DNA from: a virus | Taxonomy: Duplodnaviria > Caudoviricetes | Virus record (IMG/VR): IMGVR_UViG_3300017989_000122 | Span: 1-62,068 of that record | DNA: 62,068 bases | Reading direction: 5' to 3' (one strand) | Part shown: one piece after another, positions 1 through 62,068 of the stretch | Position numbering within the stretch: position 1 is the stretch's first letter | Layout: each line of letters begins with the position of its first letter | Program-made: the position numbers and the translations under genes | Notes under the pieces: generated by a model | The model's input: only the letters and a program-made list of their open reading frames with translations | Databases searched by the model: none | Told to the model about the DNA's origin: nothing

Positions 1-34
1 CTTCCTCCTCGGCTTCCTCCTCGGCTTCCTCCTC
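1..34. repeat. Terminal direct repeat (identical to 62035-62068); circular assembly overlap
   Basis: CTTCCTCCTCGGCTTCCTCCTCGGCTTCCTCCTC at both ends; joining the ends keeps a minus-strand ORF in frame. Confidence 0.85.
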
Positions 35-280
35 TAGGAGTCCCATCTCGGTCAGGACTTCCTGAGTCGACTCCTCGAGTTCGTCGTCCGGCGTGAGCTC
101 CTTCACCAGTTCCTCGAGCTCCGCGTCGATTTCCTTCTCGGTCGACTTTTCGGGATTCTCGATTCCGTCCTCGATGCCCAGCACCTCGTAGAGGTCGTTC
201 AGGGCATCGACCTTCTCCTTCGGGACGGCGGCCTTCCTCTTCTTCGGGGCTGCCTTTTTCTTCGCGGTTTTCTTCGCCAT
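1..280 (-). CDS. 5' half of a wrap-around Lys-rich/acidic (histone H1-like) protein; continues at 62034-61709
   Basis: ATG at 280 with GGAGG RBS; MAKKTAKKKAAPKKRK...EEEAEEEAEE; same frame as ORF 61709..62005 after the 34-nt overlap. Confidence 0.75.
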   Translation of the reverse strand, partial: MAKKTAKKKAAPKKRKAAVPKEKVDALNDLYEVLGIEDGIENPEKSTEKEIDAELEELVKELTPDDELEESTQEVLTEMGLLEEEAEEEAEEE

Positions 281-348: not shown

Positions 349-975
349 TCACCGCAGTCCCAGTAATTTATGGACTTGGGCGGACAATCGCCAGCCGGGC
401 CGTGCATATATCAAGTCCAGGCAGCGCCGGACATTCATCTTACCATTACTGTCAAGTGGTTGGATGAACTTGGACGCGCCTGGGAACTCCGCGTCGAACT
501 TGTCCAGTACTCCGGTTTTTATCCAAGGGGCGGCAACGAGTTTGATTTCGTTGATACAGATTGTGCGGAACGCCGGATGGATGGGTGCATTTTCCTTTGG
601 ACTGATTGTAATCCACACGTTGCTCAATGCTCCCTCATCAATCAACCGGGTCGGGTCGACTGTCCCGTTCGTTTCGATGCACACCCATCCGTTGAATCGC
701 TGCAGTGTGACCAGTAAGGGGGAGCACAACTGGAGGAATGGCTCACCGCCGGTGAGGACAATTAGGCACCCCTCACGATTGTGTGGCAGTAGTGCACTCA
801 CTTCCTCGATGATTCGGATGCCGGTCATGTGCTGGCGTGCGGCGTGGTCGGTATCACACCAATCACAGTTGAGGTTACATCCGGCGAACCGGACGAACAC
901 GGCCAGCCGGCCAGCCCGCTCGCCTTCGCCCTGTATCGAGCGGAAGACTTCATTGATGGTATAGGTCTTGCTCAT
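349..975 (-). CDS. queE: 7-carboxy-7-deazaguanine synthase (radical SAM)
   Basis: EVFRSIQGEG, FVRFAGCNLNCDWCDT (CxxxCxxC), LTGGEP, IETNGT, WRLSAQVHK; ATGA overlap with queD. Confidence 0.95.
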   Translation of the reverse strand: MSKTYTINEVFRSIQGEGERAGRLAVFVRFAGCNLNCDWCDTDHAARQHMTGIRIIEEVSALLPHNREGCLIVLTGGEPFLQLCSPLLVTLQRFNGWVCIETNGTVDPTRLIDEGALSNVWITISPKENAPIHPAFRTICINEIKLVAAPWIKTGVLDKFDAEFPGASKFIQPLDSNGKMNVRRCLDLIYARPGWRLSAQVHKLLGLR

Positions 976-1367
976 GGCCGGTACTCCGCCCAAGAGGTTT
1001 CGGTCTCCCATACCTTGACCGACTCGACCCAGACACTAGGACCGAGATGGTTGCGTGCGGCATACCAAAGATGCCTCGCCATGTGTTCGGCTGTCGGGTG
1101 CACGCCGAGCACAACTGTCTTGTTTTTAGCCGTCGGTGACGACTCCTTGACGATGATGGCATGGTCCCACTTCTCATGGATGGTTTCCCACCATCTCGAC
1201 AAGTGACAGAAGTCCAGGACCATATCATTGATTAGTTCCTCAGACTGCAACACCACCTCCACCTTGTACGAGTGGCCGTGGATGTTGCGGCAGCATTCGC
1301 TGTCAGCATTAGGCAGAAAGTGAGCGGCCTCGAACTTGAACGTCTTGCCAATGCGGTACATGGTCAA
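972..1367 (-). CDS. queD: 6-carboxytetrahydropterin synthase
   Basis: FEAAHFL, CRNIHGHSY, MVLDF, WDH, PTAE, VWET motifs. Confidence 0.95.
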   Translation of the reverse strand: MTMYRIGKTFKFEAAHFLPNADSECCRNIHGHSYKVEVVLQSEELINDMVLDFCHLSRWWETIHEKWDHAIIVKESSPTAKNKTVVLGVHPTAEHMARHLWYAARNHLGPSVWVESVKVWETETSWAEYRP

Positions 1368-5411: not shown

Positions 5412-5737
5412 GTGAGTACGACCTTATTGTTGACCAACACCTCGGCCCACTTGCCTACTTTGACTTGGAACTTGCTCGGCATCCGTTTCCACGGAAAGTA
5501 TTTGTCCTTCTTCAGAATGTACTGACGGAACAGCAACAGCCGGAAGCGGACCATGACATTCCCGGCCATCTCCATGGTCGTCCGGTCGAGATGTGGGAAT
5601 ATGTGATAGCCGAAGTCGAGGGAGAGGTGGGGGAATCGTTTTCGCTGCCTCGTCCCCTCATCATCGATGGCGTCCAGCTCCTCCATCGATACGATGTTCG
5701 ACGGGATGGGCACCCCCTTGAACTTTGTCCTTCTCAT
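5408..5737 (-). CDS. Hypothetical protein
   Basis: AGGAGGAG RBS before ATG 5737; coupled to primase. Confidence 0.55.
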   Translation of the reverse strand: MRRTKFKGVPIPSNIVSMEELDAIDDEGTRQRKRFPHLSLDFGYHIFPHLDRTTMEMAGNVMVRFRLLLFRQYILKKDKYFPWKRMPSKFQVKVGKWAEVLVNNKVVLT

Positions 5738-5748
5738 GGTGGCTCCTC

Positions 5749-6243
5749 CTATGCGAAGGCGTATTTGAGTTCCTGGAAGGTTATACGGATGGTTTTCCTT
5801 GACCATCCCCTGTCCAGTAGTTGGCGTTTCAGTTTTCCTTTGGCACCCCAGGCGACCAACTCCCCTGGCGAGTCTAGCACCAATCCGACGACGAGGCGCG
5901 CCTCATTCGACAACCCCTCCACCTTTTCGTGGAACGATTGAAGGACATCCTCCTGGGTGGGGACGTAACGGAGTAGTTCGTCAACGCCATCCTTCGGAGG
6001 AGTCAGTCGATGATAGTGGCGGCAGAAGTTGGCGAGGCGGCTCTTGATGACCCGATTGGCATAGGGCGAAATGCCGATGCCCTTCCGCTTGTCCCAGCGA
6101 TGGCAGGCGCGGATGAAGGCCAGGCGGGCTTCCGCTTCCACTTCATCGAAGGGGACGCCGGTCGTGATATGCCAGCTGTTGGCCCTGGCTATAATGAGTG
6201 GCCTGTGCCGTTTGAGTTCGGCGGCAATTTGTCGCGATGTCAT
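5749..6243 (-). CDS. Phage sigma70-family-like sigma factor
   Basis: Region-2-like FDEVEAEARLAFIRACHRWDKRKG...SPYANRVIKSRLANF. Confidence 0.7.
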   Translation of the reverse strand: MTSRQIAAELKRHRPLIIARANSWHITTGVPFDEVEAEARLAFIRACHRWDKRKGIGISPYANRVIKSRLANFCRHYHRLTPPKDGVDELLRYVPTQEDVLQSFHEKVEGLSNEARLVVGLVLDSPGELVAWGAKGKLKRQLLDRGWSRKTIRITFQELKYAFA

Positions 6244-6414
6244 TTCCGGTGGCTCCTTACTTGAATAGATACATGGATAGGATGTAGATTACCCCAATGA
6301 GAATTGTCCACCATAAGAAATTGCGAACTATCTCGGCGGGGTTGACTGCATTCTTCTTCTCCTGCATAGCCACGCGGCGGTGCAGGTCCTGGATTTGTCG
6401 GGGCGTGTAGACTT

Positions 6415-6690
6415 TCATGTCGCACTCCTCTTGCTGAACTGCGGTGGCAGTGGCTCCTTCACTTTGGCATCGCTGTCGATGTAGGTTCCCTGGCTGGCGA
6501 GGTAGTCACGAAGGACATCCTCCAGTAGTCCGGCCACGGTCATGTTATGCCGCCGTGCGTGTGCCAGGAACTCCTGCTTGACGACTCGACGGAAACCGTG
6601 AATTGTCCACAAGGCGTTCTCTCCTTGCTGTGGTTTCCACTTCCTTTTTCCTATGCTGGTGTTCCTCGCTTGGCTCTTGGGCTGTGCCAT
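6415..6690 (-). CDS. Ribbon-helix-helix (Arc/CopG-like) DNA-binding protein
   Basis: WTIHGF strand followed by VKQEFLAHARRHNMTVAGLLEDVLRDYL helices. Confidence 0.6.
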   Translation of the reverse strand: MAQPKSQARNTSIGKRKWKPQQGENALWTIHGFRRVVKQEFLAHARRHNMTVAGLLEDVLRDYLASQGTYIDSDAKVKEPLPPQFSKRSAT

Positions 6691-6704
6691 GTTGGGCCTC
6701 CTTT

Positions 6705-7076
6705 CTAAAAGGTTTTGTAGATGAAGAACTTGTTCCAGTGATACGCCACACCTTCTCCTCGTCCCATCATCTTGAGAAGGTCTACCAGTTGCTTCAGTGG
6801 ATGGATATCTGGTTTGACCTCGAAGATTTGTTGGATACGATAAAGCTTGGCGCGGCGGTTAGGGATGAGATGTGGTTCGGGAATGTGGATGTAGGCCAAC
6901 CTGCACTCCTTCTTTGCGAGGTTCAGTCCTTTCCACCCACTCTTTCGTTTCACCAGCCATATTATAGCACGGATGGTATCGGGATGCGAGGCCTGGTATT
7001 CGTATATGCGGCTTCCAACCGCAATACAAACCCAGGTTGCACCATAGCTCTCGATGAAAGGTTCAGGTCTACTCAT
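6705..7076 (-). CDS. Hypothetical protein
   Basis: ATGA-coupled to the SNF2 helicase; RBS present. Confidence 0.55.
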   Translation of the reverse strand: MSRPEPFIESYGATWVCIAVGSRIYEYQASHPDTIRAIIWLVKRKSGWKGLNLAKKECRLAYIHIPEPHLIPNRRAKLYRIQQIFEVKPDIHPLKQLVDLLKMMGRGEGVAYHWNKFFIYKTF

Positions 7077-9037
7077 CGTCCGTCCTCCTTCTGCTTGAGG
7101 TTATCGAGTAGTTCGACCAGCAGTGACTCATCTTGGATATCCTTCCCATCGAGGACCGATGCCAGGACCTGCCTCTTCTTGTCTAGCAGTGCGGCGATTT
7201 CCTCCTCCACACTGTCGGCCAATAGGATGTAGTATGCCGTGACGCTGTCGGCTTCCTGACCAATACGATGGATTCGGTCCTCCGCTTGGTCATGTTCGCC
7301 GGGAGTCCATCCCAGTTCCAGGAAGCAGGTTGCGTTCGCGGCGGTCAGCGTGATACCCACACCAGCCGCCTTGATGTTACCGATGAATAACCGCACCTTG
7401 GGATTCTTTTGGAACTGGTCGACCGCCTCCTGCCTCGCCTTCAATGGAGTGGAACCGTCGACGCGAACCGTCTCACCCGGGTAATCCGCCTCCAGTGCAT
7501 CCAGCGTGGCCTTGTGGGTGGCGAACACCACCAGCTTGCCACCGGTGGCATCCAAGGTATCCTGTATCCAGCCAAGGGCCTCGAACAACTTCGCCTTCAC
7601 GGCCAGTTGTTTCAATGCCTCCATCCTGGTCAGGGCCTCGGCTCGTTGGGCCGCCTCCAACTTCTCCGGGTCGACTTCCCCCAGCCATCCTAGGAAGTTC
7701 CGTTCGGCTATTCGGTAGTTCTCCATCATGGCCGAAGCCCCTTCCACGGGTACGACCACACGGACCTTCGGTGGCAGTTCCTTCAACACGTCCGCCTTCA
7801 GTCGCCGGAGCATCAGTCCCGAGCCGACCAGACTGGTATGCAGTTCATCGGTATGGCTCGCCCCACTGAAATCCCAGCCGAACCGATTGTGGCGTGCACC
7901 GCAATACCTCTGGGCGAACTTCCAGAATGATTTGTAGTTCACTCCGTCGATGAGGTTCAACGTGGTGAAGAATTCCACCGGCCTGTTTGTGATGGGAGTC
8001 CCAGATAGGGCAATGATGTTCTTGCATGACTTGGCCAGCCGCTGTGCTGCCTTGGTCCGCTTCGCCTTTTGATTCTTGATGTAGTGGCACTCATCCAGAA
8101 TCAGGGAGGGCGCCTTCACCTTAGTCAGTCGCGGTGCCCAATCATTTAAGATGTCGTAGTTGATGATGACCCAACCATCCTTCTTCACCGATGCCTTCTG
8201 GCCGTTGGGTCGTCCGTTGATGATGACGGCATGCTTGCCCGTCCATCGCTTGAGCTCCCGTGCCCAATTCAGTTTTAGTGACGCGGGACACACCACGATG
8301 GCTGGCAGTGCTTCGACCTGCTCTACGGCACCGATGGCCTGGATTGTTTTCCCAAGGCCCATCTCGTCGCCGAGCAGGCACCGGCAATCCTGTTTGACCA
8401 AGTGCCGGATACCGTCCTGCTGGAAGGGATAGGCGGCTTCAGCGATGGCCACGGGGAGTGGTGCCTTTGCTGCCACCTCGTTCTTGGCTCGGGCTTCATC
8501 GAGTGATGCCTTCAGCTCGACCATCTGTGGGTTGTGCTTCAGGTCGTCACCGAGGAAGTCGATTACCTTGTCAGCGATTCCTTTCTCGTAAGGGATTGCC
8601 CATGCTTTCCTTTCCTTGTCCCACCGGCGACCCGGGATGGTCTTGACTTTCTCCACCAGCTTCGGGTCGTAAGGGAATCGGATGAGTATTTCCTCAGCAT
8701 GCTCCGTCAGCTCAGCTCGACGGACCGGTAAGGTGGTGGCTCTCGTCGTTTGCCTTCTCCTTCTGGTCGACTTCGGCGATGCCTTGAAATCAGCCAGCTG
8801 GCTCTTGGAATAAGTCCGCAGCATCCGCCTTGCCGCCTCCTCCTGCTTGATGGTGAGGTTACGGCCAGCGCGGATTTGTTTGGCCAGTGAGGACCCGAAG
8901 GCCGCGTCACGACCGTTCCATCCGGCCTTGTTCTTCCAGCGAGTCGAGTGGGCCACCCGCTCATCTTCGGTTTGCCTGGCATCCATGAATAGGATGGCCT
9001 GGCACACCTCCTCGATGCTTGCGGTATTGGGGTTCAT
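7073..9037 (-). CDS. SNF2/SMARCAL1(HARP)-like helicase
   Basis: DEMGLGKT, DECH, LSGTP, GVGITL, QAEDRIHRIGQ; N-terminal HARP-like FPYDPKLVEKVKTIPGRRWD. Confidence 0.92.
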   Translation of the reverse strand: MNPNTASIEEVCQAILFMDARQTEDERVAHSTRWKNKAGWNGRDAAFGSSLAKQIRAGRNLTIKQEEAARRMLRTYSKSQLADFKASPKSTRRRRQTTRATTLPVRRAELTEHAEEILIRFPYDPKLVEKVKTIPGRRWDKERKAWAIPYEKGIADKVIDFLGDDLKHNPQMVELKASLDEARAKNEVAAKAPLPVAIAEAAYPFQQDGIRHLVKQDCRCLLGDEMGLGKTIQAIGAVEQVEALPAIVVCPASLKLNWARELKRWTGKHAVIINGRPNGQKASVKKDGWVIINYDILNDWAPRLTKVKAPSLILDECHYIKNQKAKRTKAAQRLAKSCKNIIALSGTPITNRPVEFFTTLNLIDGVNYKSFWKFAQRYCGARHNRFGWDFSGASHTDELHTSLVGSGLMLRRLKADVLKELPPKVRVVVPVEGASAMMENYRIAERNFLGWLGEVDPEKLEAAQRAEALTRMEALKQLAVKAKLFEALGWIQDTLDATGGKLVVFATHKATLDALEADYPGETVRVDGSTPLKARQEAVDQFQKNPKVRLFIGNIKAAGVGITLTAANATCFLELGWTPGEHDQAEDRIHRIGQEADSVTAYYILLADSVEEEIAALLDKKRQVLASVLDGKDIQDESLLVELLDNLKQKEDGR

Positions 9038-9041
9038 GGCA

Positions 9042-9425
9042 CTACTCCGTTTCCATGCCGCCGAGGAATCCCTCATGCTTGGCCTTGGCTGCATCCTTGC
9101 GGAGCTCAACTATCTCATCCTCGTCGGCCTGTTTGATTCGCTTACGGAGTGCCGCTAGCAGGTCGTCCTTGAACTGACCTACCGTGCCATGCCGGTATAC
9201 CATGTCGGTGAATCGTTCGATATCCTCATACCCTGCGGAGTTCTCGTGCATCATCTCGCGCACGTTTTCAAGGAACGCAACACAGTTACAGGTGAGAATG
9301 ACGAACGCCTTCCTTTCTTCGTTGGAGATTTCCCGCATGCTGGATGACATTTCGTGGAACGCGTCAATGCAGTCCTGCAAGTCCGAGGCGGTATTCCTCC
9401 AACGGCAGTGGCTCATGTTACCCAT
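9042..9425 (-). CDS. Hypothetical phage protein
   Basis: MGNMSHCRWRNTASDLQDC; RBS GAGGAGG. Confidence 0.65.
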   Translation of the reverse strand: MGNMSHCRWRNTASDLQDCIDAFHEMSSSMREISNEERKAFVILTCNCVAFLENVREMMHENSAGYEDIERFTDMVYRHGTVGQFKDDLLAALRKRIKQADEDEIVELRKDAAKAKHEGFLGGMETE

Positions 9426-9612
9426 CTCGTTCCTCCTCTGCTTCCATCAGTTCTTGTCTCTTCTCTTCCCGCTTGAGTTCTTCCTGGTACTCGAGCTCCC
9501 GTTTCTCTTCCATCGCTCGGTAGTAGGCCGCACGATTGAAGCGGAACATGTTTTCGAGTGCCTGCTCTTCCGGGTCGACCAAGCAGTCGTAGTAGTCTCT
9601 CGGCCTTGGCAT
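9418..9612 (-). CDS. Small acidic hypothetical protein
   Basis: RBS GAGG; coupled to next gene. Confidence 0.55.
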   Translation of the reverse strand: MPRPRDYYDCLVDPEEQALENMFRFNRAAYYRAMEEKRELEYQEELKREEKRQELMEAEEERDG

Positions 9613-9626
9613 CTGTTTCCTCTAGG

Positions 9627-10001
9627 TTAGATTTGATAGTCGTACTCGACCACGGTACATCCATAGTCCCTGGCTCCCTTGAGGGCGGCGGCACGGGACT
9701 TGTAAACGTGGTTAAGCAGAAATACCTTGTGGCCTTGCGGTCCCTCAAAGACCGACCATCGGAACTCGTAGGGATTTCTGGAATTGCCACTCAAGCCCTT
9801 CACGAGATGGGCATGGCTCTGCCCAACGGCGCTATTGAAGATGGCGGAGGCGGCTTTGTTCTCCGCCTGCTTCACGGCTAGATTGAATCGCTGGTCGTTC
9901 ATTTCTGCTCCTTCATCTTTGGTCTTGACAACTACGTTGCCCTTGATGGTCTCGCCTTCCTTGGCGGGGGCTCCGAACTTGGATGTGGACTTCGGACTCA
10001 T
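9627..10001 (-). CDS. Hypothetical early protein
   Basis: Conserved AGGAGGAAC leader before ATG. Confidence 0.6.
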   Translation of the reverse strand: MSPKSTSKFGAPAKEGETIKGNVVVKTKDEGAEMNDQRFNLAVKQAENKAASAIFNSAVGQSHAHLVKGLSGNSRNPYEFRWSVFEGPQGHKVFLLNHVYKSRAAALKGARDYGCTVVEYDYQI

Positions 10002-10029
10002 GGATGGTTCCTCCTGTGTTGTGGTTTGT

Positions 10030-10281
10030 TCACGCGGCCTTGCGATTGGTACGACGGGCCATACGTTGATGCTTGCGGTGCCACTTGCGGACGCCGTACG
10101 GCATAGTATGATTTGGTCCGCCGTGGCCCGGCTTCTTCGCCTTGGTCTGCGCCTTCTCCTCCTTCGGCTCGACGCGCGGCGGTGCCATGACGGCGACGTC
10201 CGCCTTGCGCGTCTCGGTCTTCTTCGTCTCGCGCTTCGTCCAGCGCGCGGCGAACCAGTCGACGATGCCCTTGAACTTCAT
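10030..10281 (-). CDS. Basic hypothetical early protein
   Basis: AGGAGGAAC leader; MKFKGIVDW... Confidence 0.6.
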   Translation of the reverse strand: MKFKGIVDWFAARWTKRETKKTETRKADVAVMAPPRVEPKEEKAQTKAKKPGHGGPNHTMPYGVRKWHRKHQRMARRTNRKAA

Positions 10282-10316
10282 CTCGGTTCCTCCTTGGTTT
10301 GGGTGGTGGATTTTTG

Positions 10317-10553
10317 CTATGCAAGCACGGCGCGGGGAATGCGATTGCGGTAGACCGGGCAGGCATACTTGTCCACCGAAACCCGGCGGGCAAGATGTTG
10401 GGCGCGGCACTTGCGGAACGTTTGAGCGTGTGCCTTGTCCCTCGTCCAGCCCCCCGTCATCGTGTAGTAGATGGGGGGCATGTCCCGGTTCTGCTTGCCA
10501 GGCGTCAACTTGAGAACGAATCGCTTGGCGTTGTCCTTGTGTGGCTTCTTCAT
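10317..10553 (-). CDS. Hypothetical early protein
   Basis: GAGGAGGAACGAACG leader. Confidence 0.6.
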   Translation of the reverse strand: MKKPHKDNAKRFVLKLTPGKQNRDMPPIYYTMTGGWTRDKAHAQTFRKCRAQHLARRVSVDKYACPVYRNRIPRAVLA

Positions 10554-10595
10554 CGTTCGTTCCTCCTCTTTGTGTGTGGGTGATTGGGTATAGGT

Positions 10596-10925
10596 TTATT
10601 TCGTCTCGTTCATGGTAAGTGTGCCGTCGAAGTCGTCACTGAGGAAATTGCCATATCCGGTCGTGCGGGGCAGGAAGAACTTCTCCTCCTTCAGAAGCCC
10701 ATAGACGTCGTGCAGGATGTCGAAGTTGCGGTACGTCTTCTTCCGGTCGTTGGCGCGGCTCCACTCGATGTAGCCGAGCATGTCGCGCAACTGGAGTGGG
10801 GAGATGTAGTGGTCGAACGCGATGAACAGGTCGATGCGGTTCTCCTTCGACAAGCCGATGCGCTCGCGCTCCTGCTCGACGATGTCGACGACGGCGGCGA
10901 CGTGGTGCGGGTTGTGGTGGTACAT
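10596..10925 (-). CDS. Hypothetical early protein
   Basis: GAGGAGGAACGAACG leader; NFDILHDVYGL...FFLPR. Confidence 0.65.
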   Translation of the reverse strand: MYHHNPHHVAAVVDIVEQERERIGLSKENRIDLFIAFDHYISPLQLRDMLGYIEWSRANDRKKTYRNFDILHDVYGLLKEEKFFLPRTTGYGNFLSDDFDGTLTMNETK

Positions 10926-10951
10926 CGTTCGTTCCTCCTCTGTGGTTTGGC

Positions 10952-11233
10952 TTACGCGGGCTTGCCCTCGCCGACCTTGCCCTTGATGACGGGGTCGAGC
11001 ACGGTCTCGCCGCGCATGATGCTGATGACCCAACGCGGCGGGATGTAGTTGCTCAACGCCTCGGCCTCGCTGTTGCCGAAGACGGCCTGCAACGCGGCGG
11101 ACGCGCCGCACAGGAAAGCGGCCTCCTCGGTGATTGCCTTCTTGCCCTTCCCCGGCTTGTGCCCGAGGTTGTCGAGGCGGTTCCGCAGGACGTTTTCGAT
11201 TTCGTTCACGATGGCTTGCTTGTCGGTCTTCAT
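10952..11233 (-). CDS. Hypothetical early protein
   Basis: GAGGAGGAAC leader; EAAFLCGA motif. Confidence 0.65.
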   Translation of the reverse strand: MKTDKQAIVNEIENVLRNRLDNLGHKPGKGKKAITEEAAFLCGASAALQAVFGNSEAEALSNYIPPRWVISIMRGETVLDPVIKGKVGEGKPA

Positions 11234-50337: not shown

Positions 50338-51492
50338 CTACCTGCGCTTGCGTTTCTTGGTTTTTGTTTTCTTCTCATTAAGCCGGTCCTGCTCATCCTG
50401 GCAGGCCTCCCAGACACTGCAATCGTCGCACTGGCCTAGCTCGTTGCAATCATGGCCAAAGTTGCCTCCGTGGGGACACTGGCCTTCACCACCCTTCGTC
50501 CGACGGGACTTCTTTTTCTTCTTCGGCGGTTCCTCTTCCTCTTCCTCGTCCTCTTCCTCTTCCTCGTCCTCGTCCTCTTCCTCTTCCTCGTCCTCGTCCT
50601 CTTCCTCTTCCTCGTCCTCTTCCTCGTCCTCTTCCTCGTCCTCGTCATGGGCCGGACGCCTCTTCTTGCGAGTGCGGCGCGATTCCTCCTCCTCTTCTTC
50701 GGATTCCTCTTCCTCCTCGGCTTCCTCCTCGGCTTCCTCCTCTTCCTCGGCCTCGTTGCTTTCGCCAAGGAATATTGCCTCCAGCTTGTCGTAGGGAAGG
50801 ACGTTCAGCAGTTCATCGAGGTCCTGGGACTCGTCAAGGATTTCCTCGCCGTGCTCCTCGTCGCGGTCCTTGAAGTCGATTCGGGTGCACTCCAAATATG
50901 ACCTGGTGCCGAGCGATTCCTCCGTGAATCGCAGGCGGAGGGTTTTACCACCGCTGAGTTCGGCGAACCCATACGCGTCATCATCCTCGTCCAGATTGCG
51001 GAGTTCCTCTTCCAGCTTGCGACCGAATAGGTAAGTACTCACCTCCCATAACTGGACACCCTTGTCCGGGTCATCCACGTCGATGACATTGAACAGTTCG
51101 CGTTCCTTGGGACGGAGTGCCTTGATAGCATCTTCGTCTGCGTCCGAACGACGCTGCATCTCACTCCTCGCCTTGCAAATCGGGCACGGTTTTCCGACAG
51201 TTTTCGGGCAGAGGTAGGCCGACTCGTCGACACCAATGCCGAAGTGGACGAGGATGGTCCGCTGGTACCACAACTCACCCTTCTTGACTTCGGGATGATT
51301 ACTGACCGACACCTTATAGGGAACGATGTCGATGTTGTTGCGTCCGGCCTTCGGTCGCCAGAATGCCGTTCCTTCTTGGGCGTTGATGTAGTTACTGCCG
51401 CCGCCACGACTTGCGTTGCGTTCGGCCCGTTCACGCGCCTTCTTCGCCATACTGCTCTGGCGCTGTTTCTTACTCGTCCTCTTCTTTACCAT
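50338..51492 (-). CDS. T4 gp32-like single-stranded DNA-binding protein with acidic tract and Cys-rich C-terminus
   Basis: HFG...CPKTVGKPCPIC, LFNVID; long Glu/Asp tract; between uvsY-like gene and recA. Confidence 0.75.
   Translation of the reverse strand: MVKKRTSKKQRQSSMAKKARERAERNASRGGGSNYINAQEGTAFWRPKAGRNNIDIVPYKVSVSNHPEVKKGELWYQRTILVHFGIGVDESAYLCPKTVGKPCPICKARSEMQRRSDADEDAIKALRPKERELFNVIDVDDPDKGVQLWEVSTYLFGRKLEEELRNLDEDDDAYGFAELSGGKTLRLRFTEESLGTRSYLECTRIDFKDRDEEHGEEILDESQDLDELLNVLPYDKLEAIFLGESNEAEEEEEAEEEAEEEEESEEEEEESRRTRKKRRPAHDEDEEEDEEEDEEEEEDEDEEEEEDEDEEEEEDEEEEEEPPKKKKKSRRTKGGEGQCPHGGNFGHDCNELGQCDDCSVWEACQDEQDRLNEKKTKTKKRKRR
50535..50752. repeat. Low-complexity (TCC/TCT/TCG)n tandem repeats encoding poly-Glu/Asp
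   Basis: Visible in sequence. Confidence 0.9.
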
Positions 51493-53969: not shown

Positions 53970-54470
53970 TCAGGCATCGGTGTGCTCCTTTGGTTGCTTA
54001 TCCAGCGGGAATCGTGGGTCTATTCCCAAAGGGTTAAGTGGCCCAAATCTACATTCTTCACAACTGATATCCCCAGAAAATTCATGCTCGCAGTCATAGT
54101 CATAGCCATCGGTGGGGTTGCCGCAAGTATATCCCAGACAACGGGCAGGAGCGTCATGACCCCTCGGCGTGTCAGATTGCTCACACTCATCGGGTGGCTG
54201 GAAGTCGGGCGCGATGCGGTAGATACCTTCTGGACGTTCTGTTCTCTCGCAAAGCGAAAAATGTTTTACTGTCTTGCAATAAGATACCGTTTGACTGTGG
54301 CGTAGAACATCCACCTCTTCATCTGACAGAAACATTCTTGCTCTTTCATTCTCCTTCAACCTCTCGCAGATTTCCCTGCGCTCCGGCGTCCACCATGATG
54401 CAGGTTTCATTCCGTCTCTCCTTTTAATAAGCATGGCATCCGTTCTCGGCGTATCGCTATCGCTCATCAT
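53970..54470 (-). CDS. Hypothetical mosaic protein
   Basis: ATGA-coupled to polA; SDTPR motif occurs twice; C-terminal Cys cluster. Confidence 0.55.
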   Translation of the reverse strand: MMSDSDTPRTDAMLIKRRDGMKPASWWTPERREICERLKENERARMFLSDEEVDVLRHSQTVSYCKTVKHFSLCERTERPEGIYRIAPDFQPPDECEQSDTPRGHDAPARCLGYTCGNPTDGYDYDCEHEFSGDISCEECRFGPLNPLGIDPRFPLDKQPKEHTDA

Positions 54471-55828
54471 CCTCCCTCCATACTGAATTTCTCTTTCGCG
54501 TGCCAAGATTCTCCCGGCGGTGACAGCTCGACTTCGATTTCCAGTGGTGTAATAATCCACGACCATGCCTTACGGATGTCCTCGGTCATCACCTGTTCCA
54601 ATATTCCAACAATTTCTGGTATGTGCCTCGGTCGCACGTCCATCACGATTGAGTCATGGATTTGCCCGACGATGCAACGCGGTAGGCCCCTCGACCTCAG
54701 TCCAGCATGGATGTGAATCAGCGACCAGAGCAAGCAATGGAACGCCGCCCCCTGCACCGGGTAGTTGATACAGTCATTCCTGCTCATCAGATTGGAACAA
54801 CGAAACCCGGTTTTGCCTTCGATGAACCCCCGCTTCAAATATTGGGCGTACCAGTCCCGCCTCCATTGGTCATATACCCTGAACCGCCGCCAGAAGTTGG
54901 CTTCAACTTTTGCAATATGCTTTGTGAAGTCTATCAGGTTCCTAATTCCTTTTTTCATCAAGTGCTTCTTCAATGGGACTCCACTTTTGCTTTTCAAGTC
55001 CATCAACTCAATCGCGTTCCATAGTTCCGGTGCACAATCTTCGTAGTACGAACCATAGAACTGTGGGAATACAAACTTATTCTTACCACAGTATCGGATG
55101 TCGGAAGTCATTTCCTCCAATGGAAGGATGTAGCAGTTCGCCGCCTCATCACGATGTAAGTCCTTCGTCGGGTCCTTAATGTAATCCAGCATCAACGGGT
55201 CATGGTGATAGCAAGTCGCTACACGCACTTCGGCTCCATCGTAGTCGCTTTCGAGGAATTGCCGCCCTTTACGTGGGATGAAACATCGCCGGATGGTGCG
55301 CCCCTGTTCCTTGTCACGGATGGGCATGTTCTGGAAACTCGGATTGCTGGCCGATGACCGATACGTGCGGACAAAGTTCAGGGGAAAGTGTGGATGGATG
55401 AATCCGTCGACCATCTCCCGTTCGATTTGTACCAGGTACTGGATTGACTTCTGATGCTTCCGCATCTTGAGTAGGTCGGCGAGGAAGGGAACCTCCTTGG
55501 CCAGCACTTGCAAGCTGGCGGCGTCGACTCTCGGATTGCCTTTCTTCGTATGGTCGACCGGCTTCACACCCAGTTCCTTGAATAGAATCACAGTCAACTG
55601 TGGACCGGAGTCCAGATTCATGTCATCGCCGTATCGCTTCTTCCACTTATGTACACCCTTACTGGCCATCACTTCCCTGCGTGCCCTGTGCATCTTCCGG
55701 CGCGTCCTACGTAGTTGCGTTTGGAGGTATTCTTCGTCAATACGGATACCGAAGTTACTTACATCGGATAATGTCCGTACCCCTTGCAACATGAAATGAT
55801 TGAAGTCGGATAGTCGACTATGCTTCAT
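54467..55828 (-). CDS. Family A DNA polymerase, polymerase domain (split gene)
   Basis: Motif A DYDGAEVR, motif B R...K..F..FYG, NYPVQG, motif C IHDS. Confidence 0.93.
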   Translation of the reverse strand: MKHSRLSDFNHFMLQGVRTLSDVSNFGIRIDEEYLQTQLRRTRRKMHRARREVMASKGVHKWKKRYGDDMNLDSGPQLTVILFKELGVKPVDHTKKGNPRVDAASLQVLAKEVPFLADLLKMRKHQKSIQYLVQIEREMVDGFIHPHFPLNFVRTYRSSASNPSFQNMPIRDKEQGRTIRRCFIPRKGRQFLESDYDGAEVRVATCYHHDPLMLDYIKDPTKDLHRDEAANCYILPLEEMTSDIRYCGKNKFVFPQFYGSYYEDCAPELWNAIELMDLKSKSGVPLKKHLMKKGIRNLIDFTKHIAKVEANFWRRFRVYDQWRRDWYAQYLKRGFIEGKTGFRCSNLMSRNDCINYPVQGAAFHCLLWSLIHIHAGLRSRGLPRCIVGQIHDSIVMDVRPRHIPEIVGILEQVMTEDIRKAWSWIITPLEIEVELSPPGESWHAKEKFSMEGG

Positions 55829-57069
55829 CGTTCCAACTCCCTCATTTGTGCATAAGCCAGGCGATGTTCCAACAACGCATCCATACCACAGTAAAGCAGT
55901 AGGTCGTCCATCGGTGCCTTGTCGATGGTATTAAAGGCGTTCGCCCCATCCTCCTTGCTTTCCAGAAACTTTGCCACACTTTTGTTGTAGTCGAAGATTC
56001 CCCATCGTCTAGCCGCCTGGAACTTGACTGATGTAATATTCGGTCGATTATCCAGGATGTGTGCCGCGAGAACAGTATCCCATATCCAGTTCCTTGGCTC
56101 GACGCCCAGGATGACTCGTGACCACTCATTCTCAAACGCGATATTGGCTGCAATCTTTTCGATGTCAGGATTTGCCATCAGTCGGGCAACTGTTTTTTGA
56201 ACGCGGCCGTCATTCATTGGGAAGGCCCACGCACCATCGACCGATGGACTGACGGCACAGGTTACAATGCGGTGGCCCTCCGCGTGGGGTTTGATGCCGG
56301 TCGTTTCGTAGTCAATGGTAATTCGGTCGCCGGCTTTGATACTACGAAGGCACTCGATGATTTCCCGTGGTTCCATCAGTCGCTTGATACAATCCTGTGC
56401 CACTATCATCTTCGGCAACTGTGATTTCTGTTTTGCCAGCCGCGCCACCAGCTTGATATCATCCTGGACTTGTAGGGTTGCCGGGTCGGTGGTCTTGCCA
56501 CGCCGTAGGAGGAACGCCGGATGGTAGGTGGCAACGAACCAACATCCCCGCTCATAGTCTGGAACCGCATAGCCGCGCCAGCGACTGATGCCTCCCAGTT
56601 CCTTACGCCAGCGGCCATCCATCCAGGCGGTCAACGCGACATTGCCGACCAGCAGTACGACCCGGGGTTTTAGTTCTTGGACTTCGCGCAACCAAAACTC
56701 CTTACAGGTTTTGATTTCCCGTCCGGTCGGCGTCCGATTGTTAGGCGGACGGCAGCGGATGGCATTGGTGCGCCAGCAGTCCATATCCATATTGAGGCCG
56801 GCTCGCCTCATCATCTGCCGAAGGAGGGCCCCAGAACCGCCCACCAAGGGCACCCCCTGGGCATCCTCGGCAGAACCCGGGGCTTCGGCCATGATGAGCA
56901 GTCGATGCCGTCCTTTGCCGTAGTGAGGCATCTTCGGCGAGTGGCATCCGGTCAAGAGTGTGCATGACTCGCCGCAGGTCAGGCGAGCCGCCCGTGGCGT
57001 CCTGGCCTTCCTCGTCCCGGTGCGCCGCTTGGCCTTTTTCGGGAGTTTGAAGAATCCGGTTCCCATCAC
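55825..57069 (-). CDS. Family-4 uracil-DNA glycosylase-like domain + 3'-5' exonuclease (SPO1-type PolA N-terminal half)
   Basis: AEAPG, NAIRCRPPNNRTP, TYHPA; ExoI DYETTG, WDT, ExoIII YCGMD. Confidence 0.88.
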   Translation of the reverse strand: MMGTGFFKLPKKAKRRTGTRKARTPRAARLTCGESCTLLTGCHSPKMPHYGKGRHRLLIMAEAPGSAEDAQGVPLVGGSGALLRQMMRRAGLNMDMDCWRTNAIRCRPPNNRTPTGREIKTCKEFWLREVQELKPRVVLLVGNVALTAWMDGRWRKELGGISRWRGYAVPDYERGCWFVATYHPAFLLRRGKTTDPATLQVQDDIKLVARLAKQKSQLPKMIVAQDCIKRLMEPREIIECLRSIKAGDRITIDYETTGIKPHAEGHRIVTCAVSPSVDGAWAFPMNDGRVQKTVARLMANPDIEKIAANIAFENEWSRVILGVEPRNWIWDTVLAAHILDNRPNITSVKFQAARRWGIFDYNKSVAKFLESKEDGANAFNTIDKAPMDDLLLYCGMDALLEHRLAYAQMRELER

Positions 57070-58091: not shown

Positions 58092-58264
58092 TTCTCCTTC
58101 TCCTTCTTGAATCGTTTGTTAATCCCGGTTCGGATATACGTGGGGAGGATGGAACTTTTGTCCTTGATATGCCAGTAACTCAGTAGCCGGTGGCGGTACT
58201 TGGTATGAGTCAGTACCTGCCCCTGCCGCGGTTCTTCCAACCATGTAGCCAGGTAAATCTTCAC
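58088..58264 (-). CDS. 58-aa protein resembling the N-terminal segment of the TGT/DpdA-like barrel
   Basis: VKIYLATW...HRLLSYWHI; GTGA and ATGA coupling on both sides. Confidence 0.55.
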   Translation of the reverse strand: MKIYLATWLEEPRQGQVLTHTKYRHRLLSYWHIKDKSSILPTYIRTGINKRFKKEKEK

Positions 58265-59112
58265 AGTGCAAAACCAGTCCTTCCTTTGGATGGTGTATGC
58301 TCTTCCAGTTCCCGTTCGATTACGAACGCGTTGATTACAGTACGAAGGTAGGAAGCATCCTTCGTCGGCTCACTGATGTCCTTCCACTTGATGCTGCGGT
58401 CAGGGAACAACTCCTTGAGGCGCCTCTCTACTGCCTTGATTTGTGAGGGGGATACAACCGATGAGCCTTTGGAGTAGGACTTGATACCGGTCGAAACCCG
58501 CAACTGTCCCCACGGTGGTAGGACCAGGACGCCAACACGTCCGGCCCGTGCGGCAGTGGTGGAATCGACCGAATACCAGGGATACATCTTCGTGACGAGC
58601 ATATCGGTCATGCCGAAACCATGTACCTTGACTTTCGGATTGGTATCCGATAAAATCTTCCAGCATCGGTCATACCAGCGCCGCAAGTTTTCCCGGGTGC
58701 GTGCGACCGTCCTGCCGCCCAGGGCGATGTACTCGAATCGGTCGAGGTACCTATACCAGTACTCGATAGGTTCGCCGTAGTGAAAGCAGGGGATAGGCAT
58801 CAGCCCACGCTTGACCATCCTCAACTGATTCTTCCATGAGGCAGGGGCGTTACCGATGACATCCAAGTTGGCGTATGCCTCGAACTCATCACCGCGTTTA
58901 TGAAGGAAGGAAACATAATCATCCAGTTTGATTTCGTTGCCGGAATTGTAGGCGGAGAATGCACCAGAGTCCAGGAACATCCCACTGCAGTAGGATGGTA
59001 TCTCGTCCCACACCCTTACGGCGAATGACTGTAGTATCCTGACCTTCCGACCCATCAGTAGGGAGGCATAATCTTCGTTCATCTCGAACGCGGAGTGATA
59101 CACCTTCATCAT
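58261..59112 (-). CDS. TGT/DpdA-like deazaguanine DNA transglycosylase, paralog 2
   Basis: FLDSGAFS, YANLDVI, PCFHYGE, IALGG, VHGFG, PWYSVDST. Confidence 0.75.
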   Translation of the reverse strand: MMKVYHSAFEMNEDYASLLMGRKVRILQSFAVRVWDEIPSYCSGMFLDSGAFSAYNSGNEIKLDDYVSFLHKRGDEFEAYANLDVIGNAPASWKNQLRMVKRGLMPIPCFHYGEPIEYWYRYLDRFEYIALGGRTVARTRENLRRWYDRCWKILSDTNPKVKVHGFGMTDMLVTKMYPWYSVDSTTAARAGRVGVLVLPPWGQLRVSTGIKSYSKGSSVVSPSQIKAVERRLKELFPDRSIKWKDISEPTKDASYLRTVINAFVIERELEEHTPSKGRTGFAL

Positions 59113-60032
59113 AACTTGAACCCCGTGGTGGATGCCTTGAACGGCCACGGCCAGGCAGGCATTTGGTTTTCCAGGTCCTTGAAGAATAGGATATTGATTT
59201 CGTCACGGAGCCAGTAGCAATTGCTGACACCGTCGACCAGTCGCCTTTCCACAACACGTTTGCCATCGACCGCCTTGCCGACCCATTGCTCGTCGGCCTT
59301 CAATTTGTAGCCCTTGCCTTCCTTGTGGAACTCCGACTTGCCCATCATCATCCCCTTCGACTTCAGGTAGGCCAGCAGTTGTTCCTGCTCATGCTCCGTC
59401 ATGTAAACGAAATGTTGTCGGCTACTTCCCTTGCGTTTGCGCCCTGCCGAACTGGATATGGTGATGACCCAGGCAGTTTCATTGTACACCCAATTCCCCT
59501 TACGAAATCGCGGGACATAGATTTGTCCCATCCGACTCGCCACGACCCAACTCGTCGAGTCAACCGAGTACCATGGATAGCGGAGCATGAGTTTCAATGT
59601 CGTCAGGCCAAAGCCATGTACCTTGACCTTGGGCATCCCGTCCTTGTCACAAATGTACTTGGTGAACAGGCGGTCGAGCGGGCGGCTCGAGTCACTCACC
59701 TTCAACCCGTCACTGGTCGCCTTCCTGACCATGCCGCCCATAGCGATGTAGTCATACTTGGACACGTACTCCTTCAGGAACTTGACCGGTTCGCCCAGAT
59801 GGTAGCAGGGGATGGGATGCAGTCCGGCCTTCTCCATCCGCTTCTGGTTACGGAGTGTTGCCTGTGGGTCGTTGATTACATCGAGGTTCGCGTACGCGGC
59901 GATGAGTCCTTCGTGCTCCTTGATGAACTCGATGTAGTCGTCAATGCTGACCTGAACGCCTTGCGTATACGCACTGAATGCTCCCGAGTCCAGGAACAAG
60001 TCAACCTTTGCCTTGGATGTTGTTCGTCGCAT
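59109..60032 (-). CDS. TGT/DpdA-like deazaguanine DNA transglycosylase, paralog 1
   Basis: FLDSGAFS, YANLDVI, PCYHLGE, IAMGG, VHGFG, PWYSVDSTSW. Confidence 0.8.
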   Translation of the reverse strand: MRRTTSKAKVDLFLDSGAFSAYTQGVQVSIDDYIEFIKEHEGLIAAYANLDVINDPQATLRNQKRMEKAGLHPIPCYHLGEPVKFLKEYVSKYDYIAMGGMVRKATSDGLKVSDSSRPLDRLFTKYICDKDGMPKVKVHGFGLTTLKLMLRYPWYSVDSTSWVVASRMGQIYVPRFRKGNWVYNETAWVITISSSAGRKRKGSSRQHFVYMTEHEQEQLLAYLKSKGMMMGKSEFHKEGKGYKLKADEQWVGKAVDGKRVVERRLVDGVSNCYWLRDEINILFFKDLENQMPAWPWPFKASTTGFKL

Positions 60033-60070: not shown

Positions 60071-60958
60071 CTACCGGATTAAACCCATCAATTCTGCACG
60101 GGCTTCCGGTTTCTTGAGGAAGGCCCCACGCAGGCTACTCGTGACCATGACTGAATGTTGTTTCCCGATTCCTCGGCAGGTCATGCACAGGTGTTGCGCC
60201 TCCAAGACACAAGCCGCGCCCTTCGGCCTGAGGTGTTCCATCAGTGCCGCCGTCACCTGCTGACCGATGCGCTCCTGGATTTGTAGTCGCCGGGAAAAGA
60301 TTTCCAGTAGTCGAGCCAGCTTGGATATGCCCACGACCATCCCGCTGGGGATGTAGGCGATGTGCGCCTTGCCGGAGAAGGGAAGCATGTGATGTTCGCA
60401 CATGGAATAGAACTCGATGTCCTTCAGGAGGACCATCTCATCACAGGCGCCGTCGTAGAATGTCTTCAGGACGGAGGCGGGGTCCTGGTCATAGCCGGAG
60501 TACAACTCCTTCCATGACCGCACGATACGCTCGGGCGTTTCCAGTAGGCCTTCCCGGCGAGGATTCTCACCGATGTGTTCCAGGATACGGACGACCGGGT
60601 CGGTGGCGTCCTCATCAGCGAGGTGTTCCTCCCACGGGAACACGACCCAGCCGATGTCCTTGTCCCGCCCCGTCGTCTTGTCCACGGCGGCGACGAAGGG
60701 AACGTTAGGGAATTGCTTGCGGTAGTCATCGCGCGTCCTACCGGAGTCAATGATGTCATCAACGATTACATGGCATGGCAAGTGGGAAACGAACTGGTAA
60801 CAGTCAGGATAATTTTCAGCCATCACTGCCGCCAGTATCGTCCCACCACGCGGCACTCCATAAATGATAAGTGGACTAGAGTGGTTCTCCCGATACGGCC
60901 TGAGCTTCTCGTTCAGCCGCCCCCTGACATCCAAGTACGACAAATGGGTCCTTTTCAT
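60071..60958 (-). CDS. folE: Phosphoribosyltransferase-GTP cyclohydrolase I fusion
   Basis: N-terminal GVPRGG, VIVDDIIDSGRT, WVVFPWE; C-terminal REGLLETP, CEHHMLPF, GISKLAR, LQIQE, HLCMTCRG. Confidence 0.92.
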   Translation of the reverse strand: MKRTHLSYLDVRGRLNEKLRPYRENHSSPLIIYGVPRGGTILAAVMAENYPDCYQFVSHLPCHVIVDDIIDSGRTRDDYRKQFPNVPFVAAVDKTTGRDKDIGWVVFPWEEHLADEDATDPVVRILEHIGENPRREGLLETPERIVRSWKELYSGYDQDPASVLKTFYDGACDEMVLLKDIEFYSMCEHHMLPFSGKAHIAYIPSGMVVGISKLARLLEIFSRRLQIQERIGQQVTAALMEHLRPKGAACVLEAQHLCMTCRGIGKQHSVMVTSSLRGAFLKKPEARAELMGLIR

Positions 60959-61632
60959 CAGTCCGCCTCCTCATACTTGACCGGGTCCTTCAACCCCAAG
61001 GACTCGAACGCATCCAACCGCTTGCGACAGGCACCACACTTCCCGCACGGCAGTCGCTGGTCCTTATAGCAGGTGCGTGTGAGTTCGTACGGGACTTCAC
61101 GAGCAATCCCATCCATCAGGATTCCTTTCTTGTTTGTGTAAACGAACGGAGCCTCCAAGGTGGTGGCTCTTCCCGTTCCTTCTTCAACCGCCAGCTTCAT
61201 CGCCTCGAAAAACGCGGGCGTCGTATCTGGGTATACTGTGATATCGCCAGGTGTTTGATGAAAACCAAACGCAATCGTATCCACCTCCATTGACTGTGCC
61301 AGCCCGGCCAGGATGGCGGCAAAGACTATGTTGCGTGCCGGTAGGTAGGTCTTGGTCATGGCCGGTTCCAGGAAGTGGCCTTCGGGAATCTCGCCCTGCC
61401 CATCTAGTAGGTTGGACTTGAAGCTGGTGAAGCAGGCGGAGATGTCATAGTGGCGTAGGTGTTGCCGTAGTCCGAAGTGGGCCAGTACGTCAAGCATCGC
61501 CTGCCGTTCCCACTTGTTGTTCTTGGCACCATACTGGAAGTGCACTGGAAAGACGTCACGGCCTTCATCCAGTGCCCAAGCAATCACAGCGGCCGAGTCC
61601 ATGCCGCCAGAAGTACTAACAATAGTTTTCAC
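60958..61632 (-). CDS. queC: 7-cyano-7-deazaguanine (preQ0) synthase
   Basis: SGGMDS, TYLPARN, YPD, TRTCY..PCGKCGAC. Confidence 0.95.
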   Translation of the reverse strand: MKTIVSTSGGMDSAAVIAWALDEGRDVFPVHFQYGAKNNKWERQAMLDVLAHFGLRQHLRHYDISACFTSFKSNLLDGQGEIPEGHFLEPAMTKTYLPARNIVFAAILAGLAQSMEVDTIAFGFHQTPGDITVYPDTTPAFFEAMKLAVEEGTGRATTLEAPFVYTNKKGILMDGIAREVPYELTRTCYKDQRLPCGKCGACRKRLDAFESLGLKDPVKYEEAD

Positions 61633-61708: not shown

Positions 61709-62068
61709 CTACTTCTTCTTCGCAATCGCCGGGAGTCCCTTGCCGTTGGCCCACCGGTTCATCCAGGACCGGATGGTCGACTCCTTGACTTTCTTGCCGA
61801 CCATCTTGTACAGCTTGGCGGCATCCGTCTCGCCCTTGCCCTTCTTCCAGGCCTTCCAGACCTGCGCCTTGGGGCACGACTCCAACGTCTTCCGGTCGCG
61901 CTTCGGTGGTGTGGGCTTGGACTTCTTCTCGGCGGCCTTCTTGCCATTGGACTTCTTCTCGGCGGCCTTCTTCGTGGTCTTCTTGGACTTCTTGGTGGCT
62001 TTCACTTCCTCTTCCTCCTCTTCTTCGGATTCCTCTTCCTCCTCGGCTTCCTCCTCGGCTTCCTCCTC
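61709..62068 (-). CDS. 3' half of the wrap-around Lys-rich protein (H1-like repeats + small C-terminal domain)
   Basis: KKAAEKKS twice; ESTIRSWMNRW; frame open to the window end. Confidence 0.7.
   Translation of the reverse strand, partial: EEEAEEEAEEEEESEEEEEEEVKATKKSKKTTKKAAEKKSNGKKAAEKKSKPTPPKRDRKTLESCPKAQVWKAWKKGKGETDAAKLYKMVGKKVKESTIRSWMNRWANGKGLPAIAKKK

Follow-up and report, generated by a model that had tools for sequence, protein, structure and literature searches.

The window analyzed here, a complete 62-kb virus record of 62,068 nucleotides, carries a gene that encodes GTP cyclohydrolase I (FolE) with a small phosphoribosyltransferase (PRTase) domain at its N-terminus. The fusion is real, widespread and unannotated, and represents a loop-less, FolE-linked, phage-borne form of a known kind of enzyme. 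Sequence comparisons point to guanine salvage as its most likely function, with a probability that we place just short of even. The gene and its two domains are located as follows.

60071..60958, minus strand: PRT-FolE fusion gene, a single open frame of 295 aa
60623..60958, minus strand: mini-PRTase domain, residues 1-112, with a predicted Gpt/XGPRT-like type I fold without loop II (profile, AF2, VIA, MAFFT)
60074..60595, minus strand: FolE domain, residues 122-295 (PF01227, TIGR00063, Foldseek, invariant Cys/His)

The original prediction had placed a PRTase N-terminal to GTP cyclohydrolase I in this interval, and both domains were indeed matched within the single 295-aa frame. The possibility that two neighboring genes were misread as one was rejected. 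The frame contains no stop, and the same single frame is present in 77 of the 80 best relatives. The ATG of the fusion gene overlaps the queC stop codon by 1 nt, which suggests coupled translation.

The C-terminal domain is an ordinary Zn-type GTP cyclohydrolase I, which would start preQ0 synthesis from GTP. Residues 122-294 match Pfam PF01227 at 2e-70 (236.3 bits, cut-off 27) and cover positions 5-178 of the 179 in that profile. The match to TIGR00063 scores 226.2 bits (cut-off 181.6). In Foldseek the predicted fold agrees with 9p8z and 1wm9 at a TM of 0.90-0.92 and an rmsd of 1.2-1.6, the superposed structures being those of M. tuberculosis and T. thermophilus FolE. Conservation was assessed in 24 full-length fused homologues, which are 41-62% identical to the window protein. 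C187, H189, H190 and C258 are invariant among them, and we take this conserved Cys/His cluster to be the Zn ligands.

The N-terminal domain is assigned by profile and predicted fold. As a single sequence it scores below the family cut-offs, with 15.7-18.4 bits against PF00156 (cut-off 26.3) and 23.1 bits against NF006613 (cut-off 138). Further single-sequence matches are to NCBIfam Xpt (E 4e-5), phrog_8995 (E 7e-5) and XGPRT in the PDB (E 0.01). A word-based search for short homologues of the domain found none, and an exhaustive HMMER search returned 413 representative proteins at E<=1e-3. Just 22 of 69 members of the mini-PRT family match PF00156 at E<=0.01. A profile built from the 69 members matches XGPRT 5xtk in the PDB at 4.8e-11, and Yersinia and E. 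coli XGPRT at 5e-11 to 5e-9. Fusion proteins are recorded solely as "GTP cyclohydrolase", because the PRTase domain scores under the Pfam cut-off.

Foldseek with the whole PRT-FolE protein gave only FolE structures, and the N-terminal domain was therefore folded alone. The AF2 model of residues 1-118 has a pLDDT of 93.4 and a pTM of 0.85, and contains six strands and four helices. Type I PRTases are defined by an alpha/beta core of at least five parallel strands with flanking helices (PMC2228302), and the predicted mini-PRT fold has such a core. In VIA the closest neighbor of the model is XGPRT 6kp5, with a Z of 11.6 over 114 of 118 residues. It is followed by the P. horikoshii purine PRTase 1vdm (10.7), H. 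pylori XGHPRT 7kl6 (10.4) and S. solfataricus HGXPRT 4z1o (10.3). Foldseek with the mini-PRT model returned the same purine PRTase families. A ppGpp-bound PRT-like protein, 5vog, reaches a Z of 10.0, and the regulators PyrR 1w30 and PurR 1o57 reach 8.2 and 5.6, compared to 10.3-11.6 for the purine PRTases. A chance motif match was rejected on the profile E-value and the VIA Z-score, and these two results also bore out the predicted Gpt-like character of the domain. By profile and predicted fold, its nearest relatives are the xanthine-guanine PRTases. The best matches in sequence and fold are Gpt/XGPRT from E. coli and Yersinia pestis (1a95-1a98, 1nul, 4jls, 5xtk, 6kp5), together with 1vdm, 7kl6 and 4z1o.

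The mini-PRT and Gpt/XGPRT share the type I core, a PPi loop xRGG, a PRPP loop hhDDhhDoGxT, a Lys on the following strand and the base-binding motif W-x-x-x-P-W-D/E. The three motifs quoted in the original prediction are all present, at the residues given below together with the Lys.

60842..60859, minus strand: PPi loop (loop I) GVPRGG, residues 34-39, aligned with XGPRT AVSRGG
60734..60769, minus strand: PRPP loop (loop III) VIVDDIIDSGRT, residues 64-75, aligned with XGPRT IVIDDLVDTGGT
60677..60679, minus strand: K94, upstream of WVVFPWE, aligned with the Lys of XGPRT FAK
60629..60649, minus strand: base-binding motif WVVFPWE, residues 104-110, aligned with XGPRT TWIEQPWD

K94 and W104 align with the base-binding Lys and the stacking Trp of the XGPRT hood. 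P36, G39, D67, D68, I69, D71, G73, T75, W104, F107, P108 and W109 are invariant in all 24 fused proteins, and G34, R37 and G38 are at least 90% conserved in this set. In a set of 69 sequences, 68 of them short standalone proteins, the positions that are invariant in the fused set remain conserved at 90% or more. An Asp aligned with an XGPRT Asp is likewise invariant (24/24). In XGPRT/HGPRT this Asp presumably contacts N7 of the base. The conservation shows that the mini-PRT domain is under selection.

Compared to Gpt/XGPRT, the mini-PRT is short, with 112 residues as opposed to about 150. It is also fused to or adjoins FolE and is essentially phage-borne. The profile alignment to XGPRT runs in two blocks that skip XGPRT residues 58-84. 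Alignment by MAFFT with five cellular Gpt proteins from Rhodobacterales loci indicated that a 26-residue strand-loop-strand, the hairpin of flexible loop II, is missing from the phage domain, as are nine hood residues and the C-terminal tail. The phage domain retains the xRGG loop I, DDxxDSGRT in loop III, the Lys past the next strand and W-x-x-F-P-W-E. In PRTases, the PRPP phosphates are bound by loops I and III, loop II is linked to the transition state, and the base is held by a Lys and an aromatic residue, as described for their equivalents in HGPRT (PMC2228302). Because loops I and III and the base residues are kept and loop II is lost, the ligand-binding half of the PRTase machinery is present and the lid gone. 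The N-terminal 112 residues are probably a minimised descendant of bacterial Gpt. To our knowledge, flexible loop II is present in all known 6-oxopurine PRTases, and we know of no loop-less 6-oxopurine PRTase that is active. The PRPP-binding motif, originally described as intact, is thus present and invariant, but the domain around it is without catalytic loop II, which the description had missed. With loop II deleted, it is uncertain whether the domain can catalyze the reaction, and a regulatory role becomes a third possibility.

The fusion gene lies in a complete preQ0/DpdA cluster on the minus strand, which crosses the ends of the record. In the direction of the minus strand the order is queD, queE, a K/E-rich gene, queC, PRT-folE, two dpdA genes, a sliding clamp, a UDG-exonuclease and PolA. 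A deazaguanine cluster around the fusion had been predicted, and the matches to queC, queE, queD and two DpdA homologues confirmed it.

972..1367, minus strand: queD, CPH4 synthase of the PTPS family (PF01242, 1.3e-32)
349..1011, minus strand: queE, radical SAM CDG synthase (PF04055 match at 583-888; counterpart beside FolE in 75 of 80 related loci)
60958..61632, minus strand: queC, 7-cyano-7-deazaguanine synthase (PF06508, 9.7e-47)
59109..60032, minus strand: dpdA paralog a, DNA guanine transglycosylase family (phrog_887, 1.3e-54; DpdA HMM, 4e-92)
58261..59148, minus strand: dpdA paralog b (phrog_887, 3.6e-53; 46% identical to paralog a over 163 aa)

QueF, ArcS and Gat-QueC were not seen among the scanned neighbors, and dPreQ0 (or dADG) is therefore the base expected in the phage DNA, after PMC6884629. 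The complete genome contains no guanylate kinase, RNR large subunit or MazG. [quoted passage not shown] Unlike those clusters, the window virus has two tandem DpdA paralogs. In addition, the main texts on the Queuovirinae clusters describe FolE as a plain GTP cyclohydrolase, whereas the window FolE carries a PRTase domain.

Several other features of this region were observed. The tandem DpdA paralogs at 58261..60032 both contain the motifs DSGAFS and SVDST. Two strong DpdA ORFs are found in 0 of 80 related IMG/VR loci, one of which has a weak second match, and Vibrio phage 1.207.B has one DpdA. The two enzymes might recognize two target motifs or form a heterodimer. The record ends, 1..34 and 62035..62068, overlap exactly over 34 nt inside a GAG-rich (Glu-rich) coding repeat, and the K/E-rich gene (about 280..1 joined to 62034..61709, minus strand) spans them. 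Since one gene spans the ends, the "direct terminal repeat" may be mere assembly closure. A stretch at 50684..50742, within an ORF matching SSB families, is 98% identical to the last 59 nt of the record. The gene at 55825..57069 (minus strand) combines a UDG-superfamily domain with a 3'-5' exonuclease domain, and is followed by a separate family A polymerase at 54467..55828 (minus strand). This split PolA with a glycosylase-like head adjoins the DNA-modification genes.

The fusion is found in many other phages. Among cultured phages, tblastn matched FolE in 405 records, and at least 80% of the fusion was covered in 34. The N-terminal domain alone matched 32 records (Pseudomonas 18, Vibrio 7, Stenotrophomonas 3, Xanthomonas 2 and Variovorax 2). 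Each of these matches falls either in a CDS annotated as GTP cyclohydrolase or in a record without annotation. A standalone mini-PRT query also matched two Sphingomonas phage records. The closest cultured carrier of the fusion is Vibrio phage 1.207.B (44.6% identity), the one carrier whose taxonomy was looked up. It belongs to Queuovirinae and has the same gene order. A split form occurs in Flavobacterium phage immuto_2-6A, in which gp211, named "phosphoribosyl transferase", belongs to the same mini-PRT family and is encoded directly upstream of folE in a deazaguanine cluster (QueD-QueE-PRT-FolE-DpdA-DpdN-QueF). Unlike in the window, it is a separate 131-aa protein, and the 160-kb phage has DpdA3, QueF and DpdN. 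The dG of immuto_2-6A is fully replaced by fdPreQ1 (PMC10516641).

A scan of IMG/VR gave 264 confirmed relative stretches, and the best 80 of the 264 were characterized. Among these 80, 77 are fused, one has folE as the next gene and two lack folE within 8 kb. One or more que genes are present in 75 of the best 80. DpdA was found in 62 of them by tblastn and in 68 with an HMM. Flanks of 7.5 kb or more on each side are available for 28 loci, and DpdA is present in 25 of these. The three exceptions are the three non-fused loci, so that DpdA accompanies the fusion in all 25 fused loci with such flanks. The survey did not find the fusion to be common where que/dpdA genes are absent, consistent with the predicted link between them. 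A homologue of the window QueC is seen in just 38 of the best 80 loci, compared to 75 for QueE and 58 for QueD, in line with the strong differences in queC among these phages (PMC10484667). A second scan seeded with a standalone form added 67 new locus ids, some on contigs already counted. Sixty of them are fused, five are separate but inside a que cluster, and two have no folE, one of these at a contig end.

Three standalone copies are located away from folE (L077, L078 and L225; none within 8-10 kb). In L077:7650-8330 the mini-PRT is preceded by about 110 aa of additional N-terminal sequence, with no folE or que gene within 8 kb, and lies beside a 711-aa ORF that is primase-helicase-like by eye. 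In L078:7959-8384 a 141-aa mini-PRT lies among small unannotated ORFs, also with no folE or que gene within 8 kb. A scan of 185,579 cellular species genomes gave 140 confirmed relative stretches, of which 80 were kept. The mini form is present in 17 of the 80 kept loci (L086-L101, L106), all on MAG contigs; 16 are fused to folE and one is cut by the contig end. Flanks of 11 of the 16 fused loci contain que genes. The other 63 of the 80 kept loci have no folE in their flanks, and most match as ordinary Rhodobacterales-type Gpt.

The sequences also revealed a conserved connection between the PRT module and FolE, at a residue of FolE helix 1.

60587..60589, minus strand: Arg124, on the FolE helix 1 common to the PRT module, an Arg in fused proteins and standalone tails

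Position 124 is Arg in 24/24 fused proteins and in 42/42 standalone tails. In a set of 33 FolE segments, 29 have R at this position, three have K and one has a gap, and in unfused FolEs it is K (L017), T (L231), V (Listeria 4uqf) or S (human). When standalone tails were compared with a profile of the linker and helix 1, 39 of 71 scored at least 5 bits, as opposed to 1 of 355 shuffled tails. We read the conserved module as probably the mini-PRT plus one helix. Many short standalone mini-PRTs of about 130-165 aa (P0030-P0176) end in a FolE-helix-1-like helix with the invariant Arg, and in L017:7893-8381 such a helix is found on both the mini-PRT and the adjoining FolE. Candidate roles of the terminal helix in standalone forms are docking on FolE or serving as a substitute lid. 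Complex prediction for the naturally split L017 pair, FolE and its own mini-PRT with an alignment for each, scored 0.00, which has no bearing either way. In a tree of 172 N-terminal domains there are 48 changes between fused and standalone, compared to 53-57 in the five listed of 200 label shuffles, a comparison that says little because the domain is short and some "standalone" rows are probably cut or frameshifted fusions.

The original prediction offered two functions for the domain, guanine recycling or a preQ0 nucleotide route. The sequence agrees with either, and the balance tilts toward guanine or another 6-oxopurine. We propose that the mini-PRT-FolE protein functions in guanine salvage. 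DpdA base exchange releases guanine. When DpdA swaps DNA guanine for preQ0, each swap would use one GTP and free one guanine. The mini-PRT would still catalyze the conversion of guanine (or another 6-oxopurine) and PRPP to GMP and PPi. Produced in a fixed ratio with FolE, a phage Gpt would feed the freed guanine back into the GTP pool via host Gmk and Ndk, and its removal of guanine would take away a product that competes in base exchange. The sequences establish that the two domains are fused, that the mini-PRT is homologous to Gpt and shares its predicted fold, that it is conserved, and that it is closely linked to que and dpdA genes; the catalysis, the substrate and the recycling logic are inferred. 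The genome contains 34,269 G, and guanine replacement of 16.5-32% is reported for relatives (PMC10484667 and PMC10516641). At these levels about 5,700-11,000 guanines would be freed, and as many GTP spent, per genome copy.

The Gpt ancestry of the domain and its preserved putative 6-oxopurine contacts, including the Asp at the presumed N7-contact site, fit guanine salvage best. The presence of DpdA, a guanine releaser, in every full-flank fused locus leans to the same function, as does the lack in the complete genome of a guanylate kinase, RNR or MazG, enzymes that a nucleotide-level route would be expected to use. Standalone copies located apart from folE argue for an autonomous enzyme, and the split gp211 of immuto_2-6A lies inside a que/DpdA cluster. 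Evidence against salvage includes the loss of loop II, the hood residues and the C-terminal tail, and the scores of the domain under the Pfam and NCBIfam cut-offs. Hosts already own Gpt or Hpt. Because GMP is two kinase steps from the FolE substrate GTP, the fusion cannot channel the product and gives stoichiometry instead. By analogy, PRT-fold regulators that retain the PRPP motif (PyrR 1w30, PurR 1o57, and also ppGpp-bound 5vog) may likewise speak against an enzyme.

The main rival to guanine salvage, which we rate as rather unlikely, is that the domain is a non-catalytic ligand sensor. It would bind guanine, GMP, PRPP, (p)ppGpp or preQ0, and tune the activity or assembly of FolE via the rigid common helix. 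PyrR and PurR use the PRT fold for regulation. The loss of catalytic loop II favors a sensor. The domain is joined through the first helix of FolE, where Arg124 is invariant solely with the mini-PRT attached (24/24 fused proteins and 42/42 standalone tails, versus K/T/V/S in unfused FolEs), and standalone tails keep the match to the linker and helix 1 (39/71 versus 1/355 shuffled at 5 bits). PRT-fold regulators and 5vog (Z 10.0) are also among its structural neighbors. However, the closest of these neighbors are enzymes, not regulators, and the whole catalytic set is near-invariant, including the acidic pair, D71 and R37. In addition, some standalone copies lack folE within 8-10 kb. Decay rather than regulation could also account for the loss of loop II and the hood segment, and for scores below the family cut-offs. 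The domain would then be inert and purely structural, perhaps a remnant of an ancient fusion that serves oligomerisation or solubility, and would respond to no ligand. This is very improbable, as the active-site residues are invariant in proteins that are just 41-62% identical, the predicted model is compact and of high confidence, and many phages retain the domain, whether in fused, adjacent or standalone form.

A different substrate is also conceivable. A 7-deazapurine PRTase would join preQ0 or CDG with PRPP to form a deazaguanine nucleotide for incorporation by a polymerase or for other use. The mini-PRT is embedded in a preQ0 cluster, and the split form occurs in immuto_2-6A, in which dG is completely replaced by fdPreQ1 (PMC10516641). 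A precedent is TubE, a purine-type PRTase and CDG-specific PRPP transferase, which is encoded beside homologues of GCH I, QueD and QueE (PMC6112128; 10.64898/2026.04.15.718813). TubE and ToyH are actinomycete secondary-metabolite enzymes from clusters without DNA-insertion genes, whereas the mini-PRT is partnered with DpdA, as compared by description. We take ToyH to be the deazapurine PRTase of the toyocamycin cluster, akin to TubE of the tubercidin cluster. Nevertheless, the homology of the mini-PRT is to Gpt. The window encodes two DpdA enzymes, DpdA is present in all 25 full-flank fused loci, and the complete genome is without the guanylate kinase, RNR large subunit and MazG. The invariant Asp at the presumed N7-contact site suits an N7 purine better than a C7-substituted base. 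We therefore consider deazapurine transfer improbable.

Full-text literature searches turned up no account of a PRTase domain attached to a phage FolE. The term "phosphoribosyl" has 0 occurrences in the main texts of PMC10484667, PMC6884629 and PMC10516641, and the supplementary tables of PMC6884629 and PMC10516641 may list the protein. Hundreds of database entries labelled just "GTP cyclohydrolase I" conceal a second domain.

In current accounts, 7-deazaguanine modification of phage DNA depends on FolE-QueD-QueE-QueC plus DpdA. Since the first of these enzymes carries a conserved, putative sixth activity, this pathway model is incomplete. A 112-residue PRTase without loop II would also probe how essential this loop is. 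As a ligand sensor, the domain would be the first regulator known for a phage FolE. Action on deazapurines would provide a nucleotide-level entry to deazaguanine metabolism, parallel to or feeding DpdA, and could help explain the complete dG replacement in some split-form carriers. If guanine salvage is true, the modification would be a closed purine cycle, which would explain how the phage affords thousands of GTP per genome.
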